Below, piece by piece: positions 12,020 to 64,000 of a stretch of DNA of 64,000 nt (the first letter of the stretch is position 1; each line of letters begins with the position of its first letter). The notes under the pieces are model-generated. The model did no database searches and had not been told where the DNA came from. It saw only the letters and a list, made by a program, of their open reading frames with translations. A program made the position numbers and the translations under genes. Origin of the DNA: a virus; IMG/VR virus record IMGVR_UViG_3300027749_000070, positions 27,247-91,246 of that record, one strand, 5' to 3'.

Positions 12020-13669
12020 ATGTTAAAAGATAAATTATTAGTAAATGGAAAATTTGATAGTAGGACAAAAGAAGAATATATTAAAAAACATTATCCTTTA
12101 TATTATCAAGAGATATTAGACTTTGTTATATTATATAAATTTGAAAATTTTGAATGGAAAAGAAAATTATATCATTATATGTATGATATTAAAAATATAC
12201 CTATATGTGTATGTGGTAATGAAATAAATTTTAGAGGTAGAATAGAAAAAATCTATAACGATTTTTGTTCAACAAAATGTTCAGCTATAAATGTTTCAGT
12301 TAAAAGAATGGAAACATTAGAGAAAAATAACATGGAAAAATATGGTGTTAAAAATGTTTTTCAATTAGACTCAGTTAAACAAAAAAGCAAAAATACTTGT
12401 TTAGAAAAATATGGTTTCGATAATCAAAACAAATCAGTTATAATAAAGAATAAAATAAAGGAAACTAATTTAAAAAAATACGGAAGTGAATATTATATGG
12501 GTAGTTTGGATTTTATGGAAAAATCTAAAACAACATGCTTAGAAAAATATGGCAGTACTCATCCTATGAAAAATTTAGATATCAAAGAAAAGTTAAAAAA
12601 TGTATTTATAAAAAAATATGGCACTAATACTATTTCAGAAAATGATAAATTTAGAAAAGATAATTTTTGTATAGCAAAAAATATAAATTATATTAAATAT
12701 ATTGGAAATCGTATTTCTCTATTTAAATGTGATTTAGGAAAAAACCACGAGTTTGAAATATCTAAAAATATTTATATAACTAGAACAAAAGCCAATAATC
12801 CTTTATGCACTATTTGTTATCCTATATCAGAAAATAATTCAATAAAAGAATTAGAACTATTAAGATTTATTCAAGAAAATTATAAAGGTGAAATTTTACC
12901 TGGGTGGAGAGGTCAACTAGAAATAGATATTTATTTACCCGAATTAAATATAGGATTCGAATTTAATGGACTTTACTGGCATTCAGAAGAATATAAAAAA
13001 AATAATTACCACTTAGATAAAACATTATTTTTTAAAGATAAAGGCATAAAGATTATACACATATGGGAGGATGATTGGGATAACAAGAAAGATATAATAA
13101 AAAGCCAAATTATAAATTATTTAGGATTAACAGAAACGAAAATATTCGCTAGAAAATGTCAAATTAGAGAAATTATAGATTCGTCTAATTTTTTAGATAC
13201 TAATCATATTCAAGGAAATGCTAAATCTGTTATTAAATTAGGGTTATTTTATAATAATGAGTTAGTTTCTGTTATGTCATTTGATAATTTTGAAGGTAGA
13301 AAGAAGATGGAACAAAGTGGATGGAATTTAAGCAGATTTTGTAATAAAATAAATTATAATGTTATTGGTGGTGCAAGTAAATTATTAAATTATTTTATTA
13401 AAACTTATACCCCATCGAGAATAATTAGTTATGCTGATCGTAGTTGGTCTGAAGGGAATTTGTACTACCAATTAGGATTTAAATTGGTAAACGAAAGTAA
13501 ACCAGATTATAAATATATCGTTAATAACGTTAGAGAAAATAAAACAAAATATAAAAAATCTAAATTAATTAAAAACGGATTTATAGGCACAGAAAAAGAA
13601 ATAACAGAAAATCTTGGTTATAAGAGAATATACGATTGTGGTAAAATTAAATTTGAATATATCTTATAA
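12020..13669 (+). mobile_element. Hef-like free-standing homing endonuclease
   Basis: Repeated EKYG segments; EIDIY..GFEFNGLYWHS, IHIWED, FARKC, ISYADRSWSEG..Y..LGF, IYDCG. Confidence 0.8.
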
Positions 13670-26686: not shown

Positions 26687-27474
26687 TACATTCTTGGGAG
26701 TGGGTAATATATTTTAAGAATATCTTTCAATTCATCTCTATTACTTGAATTAGCATATACATTATACAAATTAACTTTATTAGTAAATGATTTAACAACT
26801 CTTTTCATCCTTTCAGGATCAATTTTCATAAATAACTTCGGCACATATGAATAACCAAGAGCCGATCTCAATTCTTGATTCGTCATGTCATCAAATACTT
26901 TCTTACCTATAAGTTTAACCATTTCAACTGGATTTTGTGAATATTGTATTAATCCTTTTTTTTCACTATCAGTAATAATATTTAAAAACTCAGTTCCTTT
27001 TTGACCTAAAAGAGTTATTACTTCTTGTGGATTTCTACTTCTTCCTAATACTGATTCTATAATTTGCCTATTAGCAATTTTAATAAACTTTGGATTTTGA
27101 AAAAACATTTTAATTATTGTATCAGTATATTCATCATCACGATCTATTATATGACTCATCCCATAACTTAAACCACCACCATACTGTGATTTCCAATCAA
27201 ATATACCAGCAGCACCCGCACTCTCATCATCGTATATTTCTACAAAATATACCTTATCAATTAATTTATTTACATACCATATTTGATTAGTATGTGAAAG
27301 TTCTTTAAAACTATCTATATCAAGATTCAAATTAGAATCGTCAGCTTGAAGATATCTTAATTTGTCCTCTTCAGATAACTGATTATAATCTCGGTCTAAA
27401 ATAGGATCATAATCTAATTCATGTGCTTCTTGAGCGTCTTCAAATATATCCTTATATCTTTTTAAATGTTTCAT
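26686..27474 (-). CDS. Hypothetical protein with capsid-targeting-like N-terminus
   Basis: MKHLKRYKDIFE; short helical repeats toward the C-terminus. Confidence 0.7.
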   Translation of the reverse strand: MKHLKRYKDIFEDAQEAHELDYDPILDRDYNQLSEEDKLRYLQADDSNLNLDIDSFKELSHTNQIWYVNKLIDKVYFVEIYDDESAGAAGIFDWKSQYGGGLSYGMSHIIDRDDEYTDTIIKMFFQNPKFIKIANRQIIESVLGRSRNPQEVITLLGQKGTEFLNIITDSEKKGLIQYSQNPVEMVKLIGKKVFDDMTNQELRSALGYSYVPKLFMKIDPERMKRVVKSFTNKVNLYNVYANSSNRDELKDILKIYYPLPRM

Positions 27475-54495: not shown

Positions 54496-56141
54496 TGGCA
54501 GTTTTAACATTCACAGGCTCAACACCAGGAACTTTTAGTGTAGCAGCAAACTGGACACCAGCTCAAGTACCAACAAATGCCGATATATGCATATTTACTT
54601 CATCAAGTCCAACTTGTTCTCTAACATCAATTGGAACTTGTAGTCAAGTTGATTTTACAGCTTATAATAAAAGAATTAATTTTGGGGTTAATGCAATTGG
54701 CGTTTATGGTAACATTACATTAGGAACACAAATGTCTTTTTCATTCTCAACAACTGCTGCTTATAATGGATATAATTTTATTATGGCAGCTACTGGTTCA
54801 ATTACTACAAATGGTATGACAATGGGTGTTCCTTTTGGTTTATATAATCCTGCTGGTTCAAATAACACTTATACCTTAAATAGTAATATGGTATGTGCTG
54901 AAAACTTTTCAACAGGTGCCGCTGCTGGTGCCTTAACTCATACTATAAATGGATTTACTATATCTTGCTATAAAAATGTAAGTATAAATATAGGTTCAGG
55001 CGCTTCTTCGACATCTACAACAGGTACTACAAATATACTAATACTTGGTACAAATCCAACAATCTTATTAACTAATGGTACTACAAATGGCTTTACAAAT
55101 AACATTACTATTAACGCAATAGGTTCAGTTACGATGCCTGTTAACTTTTATTACAAAACAGGAACATTTAAGTATATATCAGGTACATTTAGCGCATTTA
55201 ATATAGCACAAACAGGTTCATATACATTAGATTTAAGTGGTAGTTCATCAGCAAATAGATTACCTATAACTATTGATAATAATGGATTAGCAGCCGCTAC
55301 AATAACGATGTTAAGTGATTGCCATATAACAGGTGGATTAAGCTCAGTTAGTAGAAACTTGGTATTAAATGGTGGTGATATATATCTTTATGGTACTGCT
55401 GTTTTAGTACCACAAGGTAGTGCTATTTATAGCGGTACAACAACTATTAGATTAGTAGGCACACACAACTTAAGTATGAGTGGTACTCTTGCTTGTAATA
55501 TATCTATACAAACAGCAGGAACTATTAACTGGAATCAAGTTCAGTGGTACGCTCAATCAGGTGGTGCCTCATTTGTATATACATCAGGAACTATGGTATA
55601 TAGTGGAGCAAACTTTCAAATAGGAAATAGTTCTAACCAACATACATTTTATACATCAGGTATTACTTTTAATAATGTATCAGTATATACCGGCGCACCA
55701 GTTAATATAAACCTTCAACAACAACTAAACGCCACTACATTAACAGTAGTATCAACAAATACTTATATAAGTATGACTGGTTCATTTGGATTTGTAGTAG
55801 ATACATTTTCGCCAGCCGTATATAATACTTCAAGAATAGGTTTATCCTTGCAGCCAGGTTTAACATATAAAGTTAATAAAAACTTTGTATATAATCCAGC
55901 AGTATTCTTAACAACTATTTATGGTATTAAATCGCAATTAGCAGGTAGCCAATCAAAGTTTATATTAGCATTTGGTGCATCACAATCATTGCATTCAATA
56001 GTAACAGATGATATAGATTCATCTGATGGACAACCGATATGGATTTGGAACTATAATGGCATAACAGCTAGTACAAATACATTAAACTGGAATAACTTAC
56101 AACCTAGTTCAGTTCAGTTCTCAGCTATAAATGTAAGTTAA
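54495..56141 (+). CDS. Beta-rich fibre / receptor-binding protein, paralog 2
   Basis: FTGST...W....P...D..F...SPTCS and DID.S.G..I...NTLN shared with paralog 1. Confidence 0.7.
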   Translation: MAVLTFTGSTPGTFSVAANWTPAQVPTNADICIFTSSSPTCSLTSIGTCSQVDFTAYNKRINFGVNAIGVYGNITLGTQMSFSFSTTAAYNGYNFIMAATGSITTNGMTMGVPFGLYNPAGSNNTYTLNSNMVCAENFSTGAAAGALTHTINGFTISCYKNVSINIGSGASSTSTTGTTNILILGTNPTILLTNGTTNGFTNNITINAIGSVTMPVNFYYKTGTFKYISGTFSAFNIAQTGSYTLDLSGSSSANRLPITIDNNGLAAATITMLSDCHITGGLSSVSRNLVLNGGDIYLYGTAVLVPQGSAIYSGTTTIRLVGTHNLSMSGTLACNISIQTAGTINWNQVQWYAQSGGASFVYTSGTMVYSGANFQIGNSSNQHTFYTSGITFNNVSVYTGAPVNINLQQQLNATTLTVVSTNTYISMTGSFGFVVDTFSPAVYNTSRIGLSLQPGLTYKVNKNFVYNPAVFLTTIYGIKSQLAGSQSKFILAFGASQSLHSIVTDDIDSSDGQPIWIWNYNGITASTNTLNWNNLQPSSVQFSAINVS

Positions 56142-56466: not shown

Positions 56467-56521
56467 GCTAATTAAAATTATAATGTAAAATTATAAAAAA
56501 AAATCGTAATAAACAAATATT

Positions 56522-56649
56522 ATTTTAATCAATAAAAAATCCACTATATAGATTTATAGGTATTTTATACAGGATTTTATTTTTATTTGTCAAATAATTT
56601 TAATCAATAAAAAATCCACTATATAGATTTATAGGTATTTTATACAGGA
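56522..56649 (+). repeat. 53-bp direct repeat x2 (75-bp period)
   Basis: ATTTTAATCAATAAAAAATCCACTATATAGATTTATAGGTATTTTATACAGGA at 56522 and 56597; extra TCCAC partials at 56691-56709. Confidence 0.95.
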
Positions 56650-57716
56650 ATTTTTATTGGATTTATTCTAAAATTTTTTCACAAATTTCTTCCACTATAA
56701 AAAATCCACCTTTTATTAGAATATATCTAATATATAAATTAATTTGGATTTTTTTTCTAATTTTTTACTATTTTTAATAAAATTAAAATCTAGCTCGCTC
56801 CCAAAGCGAGCATTACCAACAATCTTGTAGAACGATAAATAATCCTTCAATAAGAAGTTTTGTGAGTTAAAAATTAGAAAATTTAAAAAAATATAAACCT
56901 GGAAAGCCTAAAAGGGCCTAAACGGGTCTTTTTAGGCATAGTTCATATATACTCTATATTACATATGTTACATATACCGCAAAATCGTCATATGTAACAT
57001 ATATGCGATCTCACATATGTGTCACGTTATACATATACAAGACCATATATATGTATCGCGCCTATATGTTAATTAACATTTGTAACATATAGGCGTGGCA
57101 CGTATATGTTAATAGCTAGTTATCTATGTGTTAATTCGTTTACATAATCAGCAATGTTTCTACGCAGATCTGCGATCATATATAGACATGTGTATATATG
57201 TTCGCAACATATCAATATGTCTATATATGTTTATGCTCAGAAGCGATCATCCATTTATATTTGTTGCTGAAAATGTTAGACTATTAACAACTGATTAACG
57301 ATTGCTTAACATATTCGCTGTTTATATAATGTTAATAGAATGTTAAAGTTTTTATGGATTACATCACCTCTAGAGATTTGTTGTTGAATATGTTAGTTGA
57401 TTAACGAGTGATTAACATGTATGTTAAAATGTTTATATGTTAATGTTATAATATGTTAAAGCGAAACATATCGAAGATATGTATATAACTTTTACATATG
57501 TGTTTATGGAAGCCCATCGCCGGGCATAATTTATTGTTGAAAATGTGAGTTGATTAACAAATAGAGAAATTACAAATACATAGTTGCACTATGTTAATGA
57601 AACAACATTTTCAGCAATTAAATTTCTGGAGTGCGATTATGAATATATTATATTTATTTATATATGTTAAGAAAAAATAAAACACACATTTTTTATATGT
57701 GTGTTTTATTATATGT

Positions 57717-57923: not shown

Positions 57924-58179
57924 AAGTTTTCGATTGCTGTTTTGTCAGCAATACAAAGATACGCAAAATACTTTTACAAAAGTAACACAAAAAGTCGGCA
58001 TTGGGAAACTTTTTGTGTTAAAGTTATGTTAAAGCTTTATATTAAATGTGTTATTATTTGTTAATGCTCAAGCATTTTCAGCAATAAATTTATGCGCAGC
58101 TACTGTGCTGAGTTGATACAATTTAAAAACTATTTTTAAAATTGTTTGTTTTATTTCGAAAGTTTGTGTATCTTTGAAT

Positions 58180-58214
58180 ATCGAAGTAAAAAAGTGGTCG
58201 CTTGCGCTTTATTT
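58180..58214 (+). ncRNA. Putative tiny hairpin RNA, copy 1
   Basis: TTTG-N20-TATCTTTG promoter followed by AAAGTG-GTCGCTTG-CGCTTT; no ORF. Confidence 0.4.
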
Positions 58215-58743
58215 AAATGTTAATAAAGTGTTAAAAACGGATGGAAGCCCATCTGGTTTAAAATTTGTTGTTGAAAATGTAGTGTCATTAACATATAAGT
58301 AATACCTTTAATATGTTAATTGCTCGTTAATCGAGTAGCAATTTCAACAATAAATTTAAACGCCTCTGCGCCTGGTGAAAACATATATGAAAAAGTTATA
58401 TATGAAAAAAATGTAATATGATGGTGGTTCATCCACCAAAAAAATTTGTTGCTGAAAATGCGAGTTGATTAACGAGTGATTAACATATTATAAAAAAAGC
58501 AATATCATTTTGGTGGACCTGCAGGTGTAAAATTTATTGCTGAAAATGTTGTTTCATTAACAAATTAGAAAATATACATATATAAGTTACACAAATGTGT
58601 GTAATTGTGTGGATAACTTTATTTGTTGCTGTTGCAAGTATTTCGTAAATTACAGCATTGACTTTAACATTTCTTTAAAAACATAATGTTAAAAGTGAGA
58701 TATGTAGATTGCACTACATATATGATAAGTTATGTTTATATGT

Positions 58744-58783
58744 GATAGCAATATGTAACATAATTATGTTACATATTGCTATC
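58744..58783. terminator. Perfect 40-bp palindrome after the Zn-finger ORF
   Basis: GATAGCAATATGTAACATAA|TTATGTTACATATTGCTATC. Confidence 0.75.
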
Positions 58784-58794
58784 TTACAAATTTG

Positions 58795-58995
58795 TCATTT
58801 TAAATCGTCAGGTAGTCCGATACCTTCAAAGTTGTAGTTCTTGTTTTTGATTGCTTCGATGTCAGCTTGTTCAGCTTCTTTATACTTCGTGTGTTGTTTT
58901 TCTGTGTCTTTGCACGTCATACAAATCATTTGAGTATTGAACATTGACATTGTAGTAATGTTTGTTTGTGTGTTGCATCTGTTGCAATTTTGCAT
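58795..58995 (-). CDS. Small CxxC-CxxC zinc-finger protein
   Basis: CNRC...MSMFNTQMICMTC; promoter TTTG-N20-TAACTTTG (59025-59056). Confidence 0.8.
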   Translation of the reverse strand: MQNCNRCNTQTNITTMSMFNTQMICMTCKDTEKQHTKYKEAEQADIEAIKNKNYNFEGIGLPDDLK

Positions 58996-59380
58996 AAGTA
59001 TAAGTAACTGTTTTATCAGTAGAGCAAAGTTACGAATGAGTTAATTACAAAACAAATAGATGTTGTTAAAGTTATGTTAATAGTAGGTGTTTTTTGTTTG
59101 TTAATGACATTGCATTTTCAGCAACAAATTTTTTGAATCTGTGATTCAATTTATATTATAATTTTTTATATATGAGTGTGTAAAATAATACATATTGAAA
59201 AGTTACAAAGTGTAATTTAACAATATGTATTATTTTTTATATTAAACTAATTGTTGTTCTATTGCGTATTTAATATGATGGAAGCGCAGTAGGATGAGAA
59301 TTTATTGTTGAAAATGCTGTTGCATTAACAAATAACTAATAAAATAAAGCATTATATGTTTCATATAATGCTTTATTTTA

Positions 59381-59689
59381 TTAGTTGGTTTCTTTAATAT
59401 TTTCGATAGACCAGCCGTATTTTTCTTTATACCAATTGTGGTAATTTTGCATACGTGTTTGTAGTATTGCGATTGCTTCACGTAAGCGGGCTGCGCCAGC
59501 ACGATTACAAACTAATAGCGTATCATTAAAGCCGCTGTATGCTTCAAATGATTCCATTGAAAGTCCGTCACCTTTGGTTCGTTCAACTGGGTGTGAACTA
59601 AGGCGGTAGCCTGTGCCTTTGTGGTATATTACGGAGAATTTAATTTCTTTCCCGTTTTCTAATGTAAAATATTGTTTGTGTAGTGTCAT
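59381..59689 (-). CDS. Hypothetical cassette protein
   Basis: Promoter element 59704-59711; terminator hairpin ~59338-59382. Confidence 0.75.
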   Translation of the reverse strand: MTLHKQYFTLENGKEIKFSVIYHKGTGYRLSSHPVERTKGDGLSMESFEAYSGFNDTLLVCNRAGAARLREAIAILQTRMQNYHNWYKEKYGWSIENIKETN

Positions 59690-60075
59690 GTCGTTCTTTT
59701 TTACAAAGATACGACTATCTTAATTAATAGCGTAAGTGGCGGATGTTAAAGTTTTGTTAAGGAACATATGTATATAATTATAATATGTTTTGTATGTGTT
59801 CTCTCTGGAGGGTGATCACCTGTAGAAATTTATTGTTGAAAATGTGGTTGCATTAACATATGGTAAAAGTTTAATATTTGTTAATCGACTTACATTTTCA
59901 GCAATAAATTTAATCCACCCAGCTCCAAAAATATATATGAAAAAATGTAATATGAATAGATATAAAAAAGCCCCATATAAAACATATGGGGCTTTGCTCG
60001 ATATGAGCATACAAGTTCACTACACTTGTATTCAACTATGACACATATGATAACATTACCATATGTGTCATATAG

Positions 60076-60924
60076 TTATTTTAGTACTGGGTACTGTTCA
60101 GTTGTTGGTTGATATGTTAAAGTTTTTAATTTCTTATCACGAAACATATTCCAACTTTTTACAAATAGTGCATAGCGATTAGATGCGATGACGGTCTTTA
60201 TATGTTTAGTTTCTTTATTCTTTACTAAGTAGTTACGAAACTGTAATACAGGGTCTTTCTCAGAAGTGAAGCCTAAGCCCGATGTAAGTGCATTAAAATA
60301 GCGTGATGCATCAGCCTCGTGTATGTCTGATGTTATTGCATACCAAGCACCAAGCAAAGACGGGTCAAGAAATCCACCGAATGACTTATGCGACTTATTA
60401 ACAAATTCTATAACATGCATCCAATAGTCGGGTCGTTTCTTATATTCAGCTAATAAATCATCCATGCTGAACATGCGATAATTGTCTGAGCTGTCTGTGC
60501 CTGCTTGTCTTTTACCAGATAGTTTTTTTCCTGATAAGAATTTTTGTATAATAGCAGCACATATTTTAGAGTTTTCAATTCCAGACATTTTGAATATGTC
60601 GCCAGGTGTTCTCTTTGTGCCTCTATCAATTATCTTGAAGTTCTCAGCGGGTACATTCTCAGCGATAGTCATACATACGGACTTTCCTGATATTATGACT
60701 GCTTGTAATCTGTGTTGTCCGTCTAACAGATTGTTTTTTTCATCAAATGATATTGGGATTGGGCTTGACTGACTGAATTCACCTCTTGTCATCAACTGCG
60801 CATAATTTTTCGCAATATTATCTTTGAAATCTCTGTTATTAGGATTTCTTTGCAACCATTCTGCTGCAAGTTCGGGAGTTACAAGTACTTGTTTGTACTT
60901 GTTCTGATGCATTTGATTTGTCAT
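60076..60924 (-). CDS. ParB/Srx-like N-terminal (DGQHR) domain protein
   Basis: VTPELAAEWL..N.NNR...Y...M..GEF...PISF...LLDGQHRLQA...IDRG..R. Confidence 0.8.
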   Translation of the reverse strand: MTNQMHQNKYKQVLVTPELAAEWLQRNPNNRDFKDNIAKNYAQLMTRGEFSQSSPIPISFDEKNNLLDGQHRLQAVIISGKSVCMTIAENVPAENFKIIDRGTKRTPGDIFKMSGIENSKICAAIIQKFLSGKKLSGKRQAGTDSSDNYRMFSMDDLLAEYKKRPDYWMHVIEFVNKSHKSFGGFLDPSLLGAWYAITSDIHEADASRYFNALTSGLGFTSEKDPVLQFRNYLVKNKETKHIKTVIASNRYALFVKSWNMFRDKKLKTLTYQPTTEQYPVLK

Positions 60925-61238
60925 AATTGAATTGTTTTATTTAGTGAGATACAAAGATAAGGACTATTATTTAAAAAGTGCTTTTTATTTAGTTAAAGTA
61001 ATGTTAAAGCTTTTCGCAGCGTAAGGATTTAAATATGTATTCTACATTAATGTAGGAAACATATTTAAATTATGTATAATTAATAATTTTATATAATAAA
61101 AACTCGAAAAAATTTGGGTTTTTTGGAGAAATGGTGTATAATTAATTGCTGAAAATGTAGTTGCATTAACAATTAGTTTTTAACATAATTTTAACAAAAT
61201 AAATTAGGTTAATAATTATAAATGTTGTACTTTTACAA

Positions 61239-61271
61239 TAGAAAAGAAAGGGCGGACGCTTGCGCTTTTTT
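61239..61271 (+). ncRNA. Putative tiny hairpin RNA, copy 2
   Basis: TACTTTTA (61228) then AAAGGGCG-GACGCTTG-CGCTTTTTT. Confidence 0.4.
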
Positions 61272-61300
61272 AAAATGTTAATAGAATGTTAAGGTGGAGA

Positions 61301-61585
61301 AAAGCTCCATCGCCGGATAAAATTTATTGCTGAAAATGTAGTTGCATTAACATATTAAAGTATTTTATATATGTTATTGGAAGCTCATCGCCGGATAAAA
61401 TTTATTGTTGAAAATGTAGTTGCATTAACATATTAAAGTATTTTAAATAGGTTGGTAGAAGCCCATCGCCGGATAAAATTTATTGCTGAAAATGTAGTCG
61501 CATTAACATATTAAAGTATTTTATATATGTTATTGGAAGCTCATCGCCGATAAAATTTATTGTTGAAAATGCAATGTTATTAACA
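61301..61585 (+). repeat. Tandem 78-bp repeat x4 (156-bp higher-order dimer) containing the 33-bp motif
   Basis: AAGCYCATCGCCGGATA-motif-TATTAAAGTATTTT; units alternate GCTGA/GTTGA. Confidence 0.95.
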
Positions 61586-61824
61586 AATGCTTTTTGTTAA
61601 CAATTGTTTAACATATTAATGGATATAATATATGGTTTGTGGGTAAGTATTTTTGAATAGCTATTAGCAATAGCTTACTTTTATTATCTTATGCTTATAG
61701 TGTTAAAAAGCGTTACATATTTAAAAGATAAGCTATATGTAACGTTTAGAGGTAACATTTTTGTTATATATTATTTGGTTACCTAATTATGTTACATTTT
61801 TGTGTAACATAATTAGGTTGTTTT

Positions 61825-62162
61825 AACCAAAAAACACAACTATGAAATGTGTGGTGGAAAATTACTATTTAAAGTAGTTAAATATATCTGGGAATATATA
61901 TAACATTTTCCGTGTCAAACTACATCCCATCCGTTGGGTAGTTTAGCCCCGTTGTTTTTTTAATTAGTGGGGCTAAAGGAATTGAACCTTTTTGAAGGGT
62001 TTGCTGTATGTAGTTTTGTCAGGTCAACTTATAGTCTTTATGCGGGTTAAAATGTTAATGAGTTGTTGTCCCGCATCCGCTATCCAAAGACGGTTATTAC
62101 AATTTACAATTTGTTTTTTTAAGTTGTTTGTAGTTTGCTGCTTTTGACCTTATTGATTATTG
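61825..62162 (-). ncRNA. Putative structured non-coding RNA with tRNA-like elements
   Basis: Promoter TTTG-N19-TATATTTG (62198-62168); no ORF; at least 7 helices; T-loop-like GGTTCAATTCC; 3' acceptor-like stem ending ACCA. Confidence 0.55.
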
Positions 62163-62283
62163 TATTGCAAATATACGACAAAGTTTTGAAACTACAAAAT
62201 AGTTTTTCACATAATTATTATTACAAAGTGAAAAACTACAAAATTAAATTTGGCTGAGTAAATTATTTGCATTATCTTTGTGT

Positions 62284-62562
62284 ATGGCTATACACTTATT
62301 CAATGCTGTTAAGGACTCGCTTCCATGGGAAGCTTTGCCTGAAACATTACAAAAAGTTATCATAGATACTTTTCGTATCGAACCGAAATATGCTGTGCAT
62401 AAAATACAGAAATGGGGTGAAAGCGGCTGGCTACTTCATTTCGGTGTTATGGGTAGTTTTTCTATTGATGCTAATCATTTTAGTATAATGGAAAAATATA
62501 ATATGGGTATTCAAGTGCCCGGCAATCAAACGTATTTGTGGAATTTATCTATAAGTGAATAA
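62284..62562 (+). CDS. Hypothetical cassette protein (near-leaderless)
   Basis: TTTG(62249)-N20-TATCTTTG(62273), ATG 3 bp later. Confidence 0.7.
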   Translation: MAIHLFNAVKDSLPWEALPETLQKVIIDTFRIEPKYAVHKIQKWGESGWLLHFGVMGSFSIDANHFSIMEKYNMGIQVPGNQTYLWNLSISE

Positions 62563-62616
62563 CAAATAATTAACGTAAAGATTTGGCATTTCTACGGAAA
62601 TGTCGTATCTTTACAC

Positions 62617-62649
62617 TATAAAGAAAGGACGGTTGCTTGCGCTTTTTTT
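62617..62649 (+). ncRNA. Putative tiny hairpin RNA, copy 3
   Basis: TTTG-N20-TATCTTTA then AAAGGACG-GTTGCTTG-CGCTTTTTTT. Confidence 0.4.
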
Positions 62650-62741
62650 AAATGTTAATAAAATGTTAAGAGCTTGGGAAGCACATCCAGCTCACCGATT
62701 TATTGTTGAAAATGTAGTTGCATTAACATATTAATAAAATA

Positions 62742-62772
62742 AAAATAGTCACCTATAACAGGTGACTATTTT
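62742..62772 (-). terminator. Intrinsic terminator
   Basis: AAAATAGTCACCT-ATAAC-AGGTGACTATTTT. Confidence 0.8.
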
Positions 62773-62790
62773 CGGGTATATTAATATTTT

Positions 62791-63285: not shown

Positions 63286-63462
63286 TTAAAATAACGGTGG
63301 CGGCATATTTTTGTAGCTGTGTGTGTATTTGATAGCAAATGCAGCAGAAATGCCGAAAATCATCAAATATACTTTGAAACATATTACCGCAATTAGTAAT
63401 ACTTTATTTTCAGCTTTTTTCAGCTTCTTTCTCTCTATTACTAGTAATGGATGAGTTGACAT
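63286..63462 (-). CDS. Small membrane protein
   Basis: Start at MSTHP; TATCTTTA at 63482-63489 with a TTAACA-type box 32 bp upstream. Confidence 0.55.
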   Translation of the reverse strand: MSTHPLLVIERKKLKKAENKVLLIAVICFKVYLMIFGISAAFAIKYTHSYKNMPPPLF

Positions 63463-64000
63463 AAAAAATAGTTTTAGAATATAAAGATACAAAAAATAAA
63501 TGATGCACATACTTTTTTATTGTTAAATATATGTTAAAATACATATTTAGTTTATAGTAATACAAAAGATAGTCTTCTTCAAATTTATTGCTGAAAATGC
63601 AGTGCCATTAACAATTAAAAAAATCTATATATTTAGGTAAATATTTTATATAAAAATATATAAAAAACTGCTTATATTATATAAATTATATACAATTTAA
63701 AATAAATGTGAAATTCGTTGGATATAATTGATTTTATATATCTTTTAGAACATATTAAATAAAAGATCGTCAAGATCATGATATATATAAATACTACTAT
63801 ATTACAGGGTTATTTTTCATGTGTTAACATAACTTTAACAAAAATTATTTCTTAACAAATATTTAAGATAAAAGATTAGGTGATATCAGGACTCTGTTTA
63901 ACGCTATTTTTAGACGAAATGAGCGTATCTATTGTGTTTAGATAATCTCTATTGCGCTATGTTTCGATCGTGTCTGGTTTAAAAATAAGCTATTCTACTA

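Follow-up and report, generated by a model that had tools for sequence, protein, structure and literature searches.

Gene-less promoters followed by a nearly invariant 35-bp block in a repeat-rich region of a virus record and in a contig family with no detected protein in common

The sequence considered here is a stretch of 64,000 nucleotides (nt), positions 27,247 to 91,246 of the IMG/VR virus record IMGVR_UViG_3300027749_000070, which we call the window; it forms the last 64 kb of a 91,246-bp record that is about 36% complete according to CheckV, and has 28% G+C. We take the record to be from a Bacteroidota phage with a freshwater host of that phylum; its helicase finds its best matches in Bacteroides phages, and many further ones in Flavobacterium phages. 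Tail-fibre genes end at 56141 and coding density is lower beyond. Between 57.2 and 63.9 kb lie three repeat families that are almost absent elsewhere in the record: a 33-mer of the form TTATTGYTGAAAATG-N6-CATTAACA (19 copies, in both orientations), the direct repeat TGTTAA-N5-TGTTAA (about 20 copies), and three sites of the sequence GCTTGCGCTTT, each of which follows a promoter that has no gene behind it. These three promoter-and-site units are our subject. The genes around them are small and mainly on the minus strand (seven small genes at 57.7-63.5 kb, most without a family, among them one for a Lar-like protein of 66 amino acids (aa), one for a 282-aa phrog_5931 protein and several ORFans), and have one promoter and one long hairpin terminator apiece.

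A first-pass annotation of the letters alone had described the units as three promoters that drive only a hairpin of about 35 nt with a conserved loop, and its coordinates and sequences all proved correct on re-checking. Allowing at most one mismatch, GCTTGCGCTTT occurs at 58200, 61258 and 62635, always on the plus strand, against 0.30 occurrences expected from shuffled sequences (none of 100 shuffles reached three), so the multicopy element is real; no further exact copy exists in the entire 91,246-bp record. Alignment of the three units gives 79% identity over about 190 bp, with conserved blocks alternating with diverged ones (the 5' arm of the presumed stem and a GC segment). The distance from the -7 box to GCTTGCGCTTT is 21-23 nt, and in all three copies a TGTTAA-N5-TGTTAA repeat starts 18 nt past the G of GCTTG and is followed, 30-31 nt past its end, by the core of a 33-mer.

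In copy 1 the core promoter (58145-58176) consists of a -33 element TTTG (58145-58148), a 20-nt spacer and the -7 box TATCTTTG (58169-58176), and upstream of it the TTAACA element described below is represented only by degenerate TTAAAA repeats (58123-58141). A variable purine-rich leader (58182-58199), if transcription starts about 5 nt past the -7 box, leads into the end block at 58200-58234 (GCTTGCGC, TTTATTTAAA, TGTTAATAAAGTGTTAA), and beyond it (58240-58293) come a GC hairpin (58240-58257) and a 33-mer (core 58265-58293), accessories that are inconstant in relatives. Copy 2 has an upstream region at 61143-61196, with a 33-mer (61143-61171) and a canonical repeat TTAACATAATTTTAACA (61180-61196) 31 nt before the -7 box, and then a core promoter (61204-61235; -33 TTAG at 61204-61207, -7 box TACTTTTA at 61228-61235, where a strain variant has TATCTTTA), a purine-rich leader (61241-61257) and the end block (61258-61292). 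Downstream, at 61293-61585, lie a GC hairpin and an array of 33-mers, and read-through from copy 2 would transcribe them; the array itself, which had also been claimed, is genuine (61302-61571; 78-nt period, 3.5 copies, 90% matches). The promoter of copy 3 (62560-62613) overlaps the 3' end of a plus-strand gene of 92 aa and comprises a degenerate TAACA-N5-TTAACG (62560-62575) at 30 nt, TTTG (62582-62585) and the -7 box TATCTTTA (62606-62613). It is followed by a purine-rich leader (62619-62634), the end block (62635-62669) and, at 62671-62773, a GC hairpin, a 33-mer (62700-62728) and a strong two-way hairpin (62741-62773), at the last of which read-through would end. A decayed fourth copy on the same strand (57312-57346; CGCTGTTTATATAA and then TGTTAATAGAATGTTAA) has no promoter; it corresponds to the 3' part of the block and adjoins three phased TTAAC hexamers on its upstream side.

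The promoters of the region's genes, read on the gene strand, consist of TTAACA-N5-TTAACA, 30-31 nt and a -7 box TAnnTTT(G/A), so that those of minus-strand genes appear on the plus strand as the reverse complement of TAnnTTT(G/A), 30-31 nt and TGTTAA-N5-TGTTAA. The direct repeat thus spans about -60 to -44, with an 11-bp period. Six instances of TTAACA-N5-TTAACA placed 29-32 nt before a -7 box occur in the record, all inside the region, five of them before genes and one before copy 2; the TTAACA element is canonical in copy 2 (31 nt), degenerate in copy 3 (30 nt) and more decayed in copy 1. In every copy TTTG or TTAG stands exactly 20 nt 5' of the -7 box, a -33/-7 geometry that is reportedly that of Bacteroidota sigma-A promoters. 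The -7 variants TATCTTTA and TACTTTTA serve real genes too, and in the syntenic region of a related contig (G002, below) genes are driven by the same promoter build, TACTTTTA variant included. Since the build and this variant also drive genes, both here and in that relative, we take the three gene-less promoters as real; judged by sequence, the Bacteroidota-type -7 elements that had been noticed at 58169, 61228 and 62606 would belong to complete promoters of the neighbouring genes' class. One member of another contig family, L055, has (reverse strand, 1813-2104) three tandem full promoters of this kind, each complete with its TTAACA repeat and -7 box and about 114 nt from the next, before a single 264-aa gene.

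That no open reading frame (ORF) follows these promoters holds in substance. ORFs of 42 and 44 codons do run over copies 1 and 3, starting inside or upstream of the -7 box and sharing one frame (..LAL(Y/F)LNVNK..F(V/I)VENVV..LTY), but copy 2 has a stop there and another frame at the 33-mer, and the coding reading was rejected. Stops in frame are as frequent in the 33-mer cores as expected by chance (3-4 of 20), micro-ORFs such as MLIKC and MVFRRLALF are not conserved, and neither genetic code 4 nor a code with TAG read as Q adds an ORF. No tRNA or tmRNA was called.

Two groups of relatives could be compared. The IMG/VR contigs G001 and G002 are colinear with the record, at 65-80% nucleotide identity in genes. 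Further contigs were obtained by a metagenome scan with the 33-mer as query: strain variants at 98-99.6% identity (L038, L043, L044, L062) or 88-99% (L046), a contig (L039; 88-90% identity) that overlaps the last 900 bp of the window and extends 3.2 kb beyond its contig end, and a contig family (L052, L055, L058) that has the 33-mer, the TTAACA repeat, the promoter type and the block in common with the record. This family, whose L055 contig has 34.5 kb, is phage-like (helicase, endonuclease VII, methyltransferase), and no protein was found that it shares with the record, G001 or G002. The three units in the window and six from L039 and L052/L055 make nine distinct units. Searches of IMG/VR by DNA pattern or by neighbouring proteins gave chance matches or none, and no relatives were found in an annotated phage collection.

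In the nine-unit alignment little or nothing varies in the -7 box and the block, where the 31 invariant columns are concentrated. The block (about 35 bp) reads G(C/T)TTGCGC, T6-7, A2-4 and TGTTAATA-N3-TGTTAA, the last part being TGTTAA-N5-TGTTAA; the T-run of copy 1 is TTTATTT, and one L055 unit (L055d) has TTTAAC where the others have the second TGTTAA. Loss of the loop sequence in relatives had been named in advance as what would speak against the element, and here its core GCTTGCGC is found in eight of the nine units, with GTTTGCGC in the remaining one. The -7 box precedes the block by 18-33 nt in all nine, the leader between them being variable (13-28 nt) and of two families, one purine-rich as in the window and the other starting with AAATCAG-N-AATG. 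A profile search for the block matched solely these units; the block is absent from 185,579 cellular genomes, in which the 33-mer has single chance matches only. Among the colinear relatives, G002 keeps the region and the promoters with TTAACA at 31 nt and has no GCTTGCGC block, and in G001 the region is absent or much shorter, without the TTAACA repeat. Another full unit lies in L039 about 200 bp past the window's contig end, in opposite orientation. The density of units is 3-4 in 5.5 kb of the window and five in 13.8 kb of L055.

When copy 2 is compared with the L052/L055 units by BLAST, homology with this otherwise unrelated family ends in every comparison exactly at 61292, the last base of the TGTTAA repeat, and starts at the upstream TTAACA repeat or at the 33-mer. 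By these boundaries the unit is a discrete module, lying between two inverted copies of one direct repeat and with its promoter 31 nt from the left one. The two inverted repeats are 91-107 bp apart, close to 9 or 10 helical turns, a fit that lacks significance for a set of six units. The idea that the downstream TGTTAA repeat belongs to a leftward promoter was also considered and rejected, as no copy has a -7 box at the canonical distance of 31 nt. That each copy continues with the TGTTAA repeat, a second GC-rich hairpin and a 33-mer at nearly fixed spacing is true of the window, but the hairpin and the plus-oriented 33-mer are inconstant in relatives: in L055 a minus-oriented 33-mer follows the block twice, and four units have no 33-mer after it. 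Purifying selection could not be assessed between strains 90% identical, as their divergence turned out to be a recombination junction to the left of 61180, the unit falling in the near-identical part.

The hairpin fared less well than the promoters. Whole-hairpin minimum free energies of copies 1, 2 and 3 are -5.0, -9.6 and -6.5 kcal/mol with z-scores of -0.2, -1.7 and -1.0; across units the energies stay between -5.0 and -9.6 kcal/mol with z-scores mostly from 0 to -1.7, and the predicted folds differ between units. The stem of the block has three G-C pairs and an 8-nt loop, and the rest of it borrows the U-tract; without that tract, as in a terminating complex, -0.3 to -4.5 kcal/mol are left, compared with -14.5 to -26.4 kcal/mol for five nearby gene terminators, and a simple terminator scan lists none of the three copies. 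The stem AAAG..CG against CGCTTT is paired in 85% of cells over the nine units, with no pair altered on both sides; as the 3' arm never varies, covariation cannot be tested here (no power, and a shuffle control without variance). Rfam gave no relevant match to the copies at E-values up to 1. The conserved element is a sequence and not a stable hairpin, and alone it is a poor terminator. Thus the "hairpin with a conserved loop" gives way to a linear 35-bp block running into the TGTTAA repeat, and a transcript of only about 35 nt becomes doubtful, because polymerase is likely to read past the block unless a factor helps. Unaided, it would meet the next strong hairpin after about 600 nt from copy 1 (58742-58790), about 575 nt from copy 2, over the array (61781-61818), and about 155 nt from copy 3 (62741-62773).

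Our favoured reading, to which we would give a probability of roughly 40%, is that the copies are gene-less cassettes of a mobile regulatory toolkit resembling the PeSLs of T4-type phages, and that the end block pauses or attenuates RNA polymerase. Host RNA polymerase would start at the three promoters early in infection, and the GC 8-mer plus U-tract would then be a signal for pausing or attenuation that is read by the transcribing enzyme, working by its sequence and with the aid of a putative protein bound to the TGTTAA direct repeats, which are an inverted version of the element upstream of every cassette promoter. Judging from the repeats, such a direct-repeat-binding protein is a probable participant; the sites of tandem winged-helix binders such as PhoB typically show an 11-bp period. 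If the stop works, with the factor bound, a non-coding RNA of 30-45 nt would result; if it is overridden, with the factor unbound, non-coding transcription would continue through the neighbouring 33-mer sites and reach the next cassette. The module would thus be an exchangeable, transcriptionally self-contained unit with no gene as payload. We suppose that the block is read during transcription because the spacing between T-run and TGTTAA is fixed at 3-5 bp, the repeat is the upstream promoter element, and the block has a strand-specific place after the promoter. The architecture, the conservation over nine units including those of a family without a common protein, the sharp end of homology and the weakness of the hairpin are all seen directly in the sequences.

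Several points weigh against this proposal. The start and stop points are ones that we infer, the TGTTAA-repeat binder is putative, and a roadblock with the repeat 3-5 bp past the T-run is plausible but hypothetical as geometry. Where the 5' arm alone has changed (C to T opposite G, A to G opposite U), pairing is for the most part preserved, so that an RNA hairpin keeps some plausibility. Changes of this kind are seen for any purine-rich leader facing a U-tract. The three copies in the window face convergent genes, so that read-through from them would be antisense, whereas the L055 units lie upstream of co-directional genes, and there is no single downstream logic that fits both. Finally, the conservation could derive in part from recent horizontal spread rather than from selection.

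PeSLs (promoter-early stem-loops) are repeated promoter-plus-stem-loop cassettes in hyperplastic regions of T4-type phage genomes, where they mediate modular shuffling and their recombination with each other yields mini-circles (Arbiol et al. 2010, PMC2839356; Comeau et al. 2014, PMC4122927). The window's units resemble them as intergenic repeats with a strong early promoter of host type, an AT-rich upstream element and a short stem-loop, with a module sequence specific to the group, in a hyperplastic setting rich in small ORFans, where the set of genes changes from one close relative to another; the A3-4G3-loop-C3T3-4 stem of one PeSL type is similar to AAAGGG...CGCTTT here. They differ in the promoter, which is of the -33/-7 Bacteroidota type and has a phased TTAACA direct repeat where PeSLs have an A-tract UP element, in the weak stem (-0.3 to -4.5 kcal/mol without its U-tract), and in a block that holds an inverted copy of the upstream promoter element. 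Moreover, a PeSL stem-loop ends the upstream gene and its promoter drives the next ORF, whereas here the promoter is followed by a stop-like block and no ORF. In PeSL regions repeats mark the junctions of insertions, deletions and replacements between close relatives; the recombination junction observed here falls at the 33-mer of 61143-61178, and not at the promoter-block units. By analogy, then, the unit may work like a self-contained cassette of PeSL type, while strictly it is not a member of that class.

Four other explanations were considered, all of which fit the same data less well. The first, and the main idea of the first-pass annotation, is a tiny stable trans-acting RNA, about 30-45 nt long, whose 5' part varies and whose 3' end, GCUUGCGC-U6, is constant, serving as a protein decoy, as an antitoxin or anti-defence mimic, or as a seed regulator. 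We consider it unlikely, even though a complete promoter without an ORF, a conserved 3' end with a U-tract and the number of copies (three here, five in 13.8 kb of L055) would all suit it, a variable 5' part joined to a constant 3' part is the customary layout of sibling small RNAs, and the one-sided changes in the 5' arm preserve G-U and A-U pairing on the plus strand. Against this, the hairpin is marginal and not uniformly folded across units, there is no Rfam family, and no complementary target exists in the 91-kb record, where antisense matches of the leaders are low-complexity 10-12-mers only. The complement of the block core, AAGCGCAA, does occur in L055, in the leaders of two of the three tandem promoters there, in a different arrangement. 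The invariant block also outruns the presumed end of the RNA, into a promoter element acting at the DNA level at fixed spacing, and the units are dispersed singly, not in tandem as type III antitoxins are, with no toxin-like gene adjoining. A mimic of a host CRISPR repeat likewise gains no support, the block being absent from the 185,579 cellular genomes.

Still less probable, in our estimate, is that the units have no function, being either by-products of shuffling in which a promoter became fused head-on to the upstream half of another, or selfish miniature elements that are bounded by inverted TTAACA repeats and spread among co-infecting phages. Such repeats (TTAACA-N5-TTAACA) do bound the unit and homology between lineages stops at them, the spacer AAAAAGTGCTTTTT in the promoter of the ParB-like gene is similar to the 31 nt that adjoin the downstream repeat, and the decayed copy at 57312-57346, the varying flanks and the swapping of gene cassettes from strain to strain could all be explained in this way. 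One would then not expect a conservation pattern that looks functional (promoter boxes and block invariant, leader free), nor an intact promoter in all full copies, nor the persistence of the unit in two lineages without detected common genes.

Lower again we place the possibility that a processive antiterminator is loaded at the promoter-proximal block, or finds polymerase paused there, in the ops/RfaH-UpxY or nut/boxA style, and that polymerase which has passed the block would resist the terminators of downstream cassettes. The block is conserved in sequence and not in structure, has a fixed orientation after the promoter at a variable distance from the start, and is poor as an intrinsic terminator, and all five L055 units lie upstream of co-directional genes separated by hairpins. 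GGCGGACGCTTG agrees at 9 of 12 positions with GGCGGTAGCGTG, which we take to be the E. coli ops element, and is compatible with a pause of the type G(-10) Y(-1) G(+1), and CGCUUUUUUAAAA is presumably boxA-like; these likenesses, short and AT-rich, are leads and not tests. Bacteroidota use many NusG paralogues (UpxY). However, no NusG-like gene or NGN domain was found in the 91-kb fragment, though this is only about 36% of the complete genome and the factor could also come from the host, the units in the window face convergent genes, and the downstream genes carry full promoters themselves. Like lambda pR'-tR' (6S RNA), nut/boxA, ops/RfaH and the Bacteroides UpxY leaders, the units have a constitutive promoter with a stop or pause within tens of nt and a conserved promoter-proximal element in fixed orientation, such that downstream expression would require the stop to be overridden; unlike them, they come in several copies per genome, with a stop much weaker than tR', with the antiterminator gene not found in the 91-kb fragment, and with downstream genes self-promoted or convergent.

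The least probable of the four is that RNA from these promoters serves as primer or R-loop RNA at replication origins, in the manner of T4 oriF, oriG and oriE, with copy 2 priming at the iteron-like 78-nt array: T4 minimal origins do consist of a promoter and an AT-rich unwinding element, with an early promoter beside iterons at oriE and a position at transcriptional divergence (PMC3016281), and the units likewise have promoters without a coding purpose at divergent control regions, polypurine leaders (in the window), a 27-nt AT-only stretch after the GC 8-mer and iteron-like repeats near copy 2, but the idea is weakened because the units are far too dense for origins (3-4 in 5.5 kb here, five in 13.8 kb of L055) and because a separate iteron cluster conserved with G002 (56535-56700) is the better candidate, and furthermore the conserved GC 8-mer and T-run are not found in T4 origins, the second leader family is not purine-rich, the 33-mers are scattered between all cassettes in both orientations and not in one cluster, and GC skew, rejected as an origin marker, reflects gene direction only.

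To return to the reading of the units as gene-less cassettes with an attenuating block, the organisation of early transcription in large Bacteroidota phages has, to our knowledge, been little described. The region shows a toolkit of four parts: the 33-mer, the phased TTAACA repeat that keeps a fixed distance of 31 nt to the -7 box, the host-type promoter itself and the stop-like block. This toolkit is common to two phage lineages without a detected common protein, and gene cassettes are exchanged around it. The gene-less units are the cleanest handle on this toolkit, on whatever reads the TGTTAA repeat, and on attenuation, antitermination or tiny RNAs early in infection; should they be by-products, they would still record the shuffling of such regions. 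A bolder proposal, which we regard as doubtful, is that promoter and block together are a new phage-borne control element, mobile among Bacteroidota phages without detected common genes, that either yields tiny early RNAs (ending in GCUUGCGC-U6) titrating a host or defence protein, or is a site at which a TGTTAA-repeat protein reprograms host RNA polymerase. In sum, the earlier observation is borne out, and with the relatives there are now nine distinct units, from two lineages; the earlier interpretation finds support in part, and any function is still hypothetical.

The surroundings of the units also vary between strains. Relative to the window (59969-61178), the strain variant L046 (648-1910) has two unrelated minus-strand genes, for 125 and 243 aa, in place of the cassette of the ParB/DGQHR-like gene. 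On the right the exchange ends inside or beside the 33-mer at 61143-61178, immediately before copy 2, and the variable core of this 33-mer differs too. L044 has the same break, and in the strain variant with this swap the array past copy 2 contains three 33-mers rather than four. Two pairs of 33-mers have the same 6-nt core in inverted orientation, 57592/58534 (TTGTTT) and 59099/61557 (CAATGT); if the 33-mer were a recombination site with a spacer, these pairs could invert segments of 1 kb and 2.5 kb holding copy 1 and copy 2. In L043 (99% identical; 817-1487) there is a 670-nt insertion at window position 62238-62244, between the promoter of an ORF-free minus-strand RNA and that of the 92-aa gene. 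The start of that ORF-free minus-strand unit, window 62001-62230, contains its promoter TATATTTG (62168-62175 on the minus strand); nowhere else in the region is DNA-level conservation seen in both G001 (79%) and G002 (72%). In G002 (C1:1-9000; L025), syntenic to 56.2-64 kb of the window, a repeat ATATTAAATTGTGCACTATA in 16-18 copies replaces the 33-mer, its copies often being inverted pairs that flank small CTCAC-NNN-GTGAG hairpins.

On the left side of the region, just past the last tail gene, three iterons of the form (C)AATAAAAAATCCAC(T/C) are spaced at 75-90 nt in window 56521-56720. The cluster (ATAAAAAATCCAC, three copies in 56535-56700) is conserved in G002, which has four copies of ATAAAAAATCCACCTTA at the syntenic place. 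The iteron core is similar to a DnaA box (ATCCAC), and the cluster is a candidate origin or control site. Between these iterons and the first 33-mer, at 56930-57250, there are dense palindromes of the ACATATGT type (e.g. catatgtaacatatatg and cacatatgtgtcac). On the right side the repeat-rich region goes on for at least 3.2 kb beyond window position 64000 (L039:1670-4908), with more 33-mers, TTAACA promoters and small genes, and the record's contig end is probably a break in repeats. Close to that end (63757-63799) is one of three occurrences in the record of a repeat of about 38 nt, GTAGTATTATATATATCATGATGTTGACGATCTTTT, together with its reverse complement; the other two are at 12150-12192 and 63443-63499 of the genome, and the repeat is present in G001 too.

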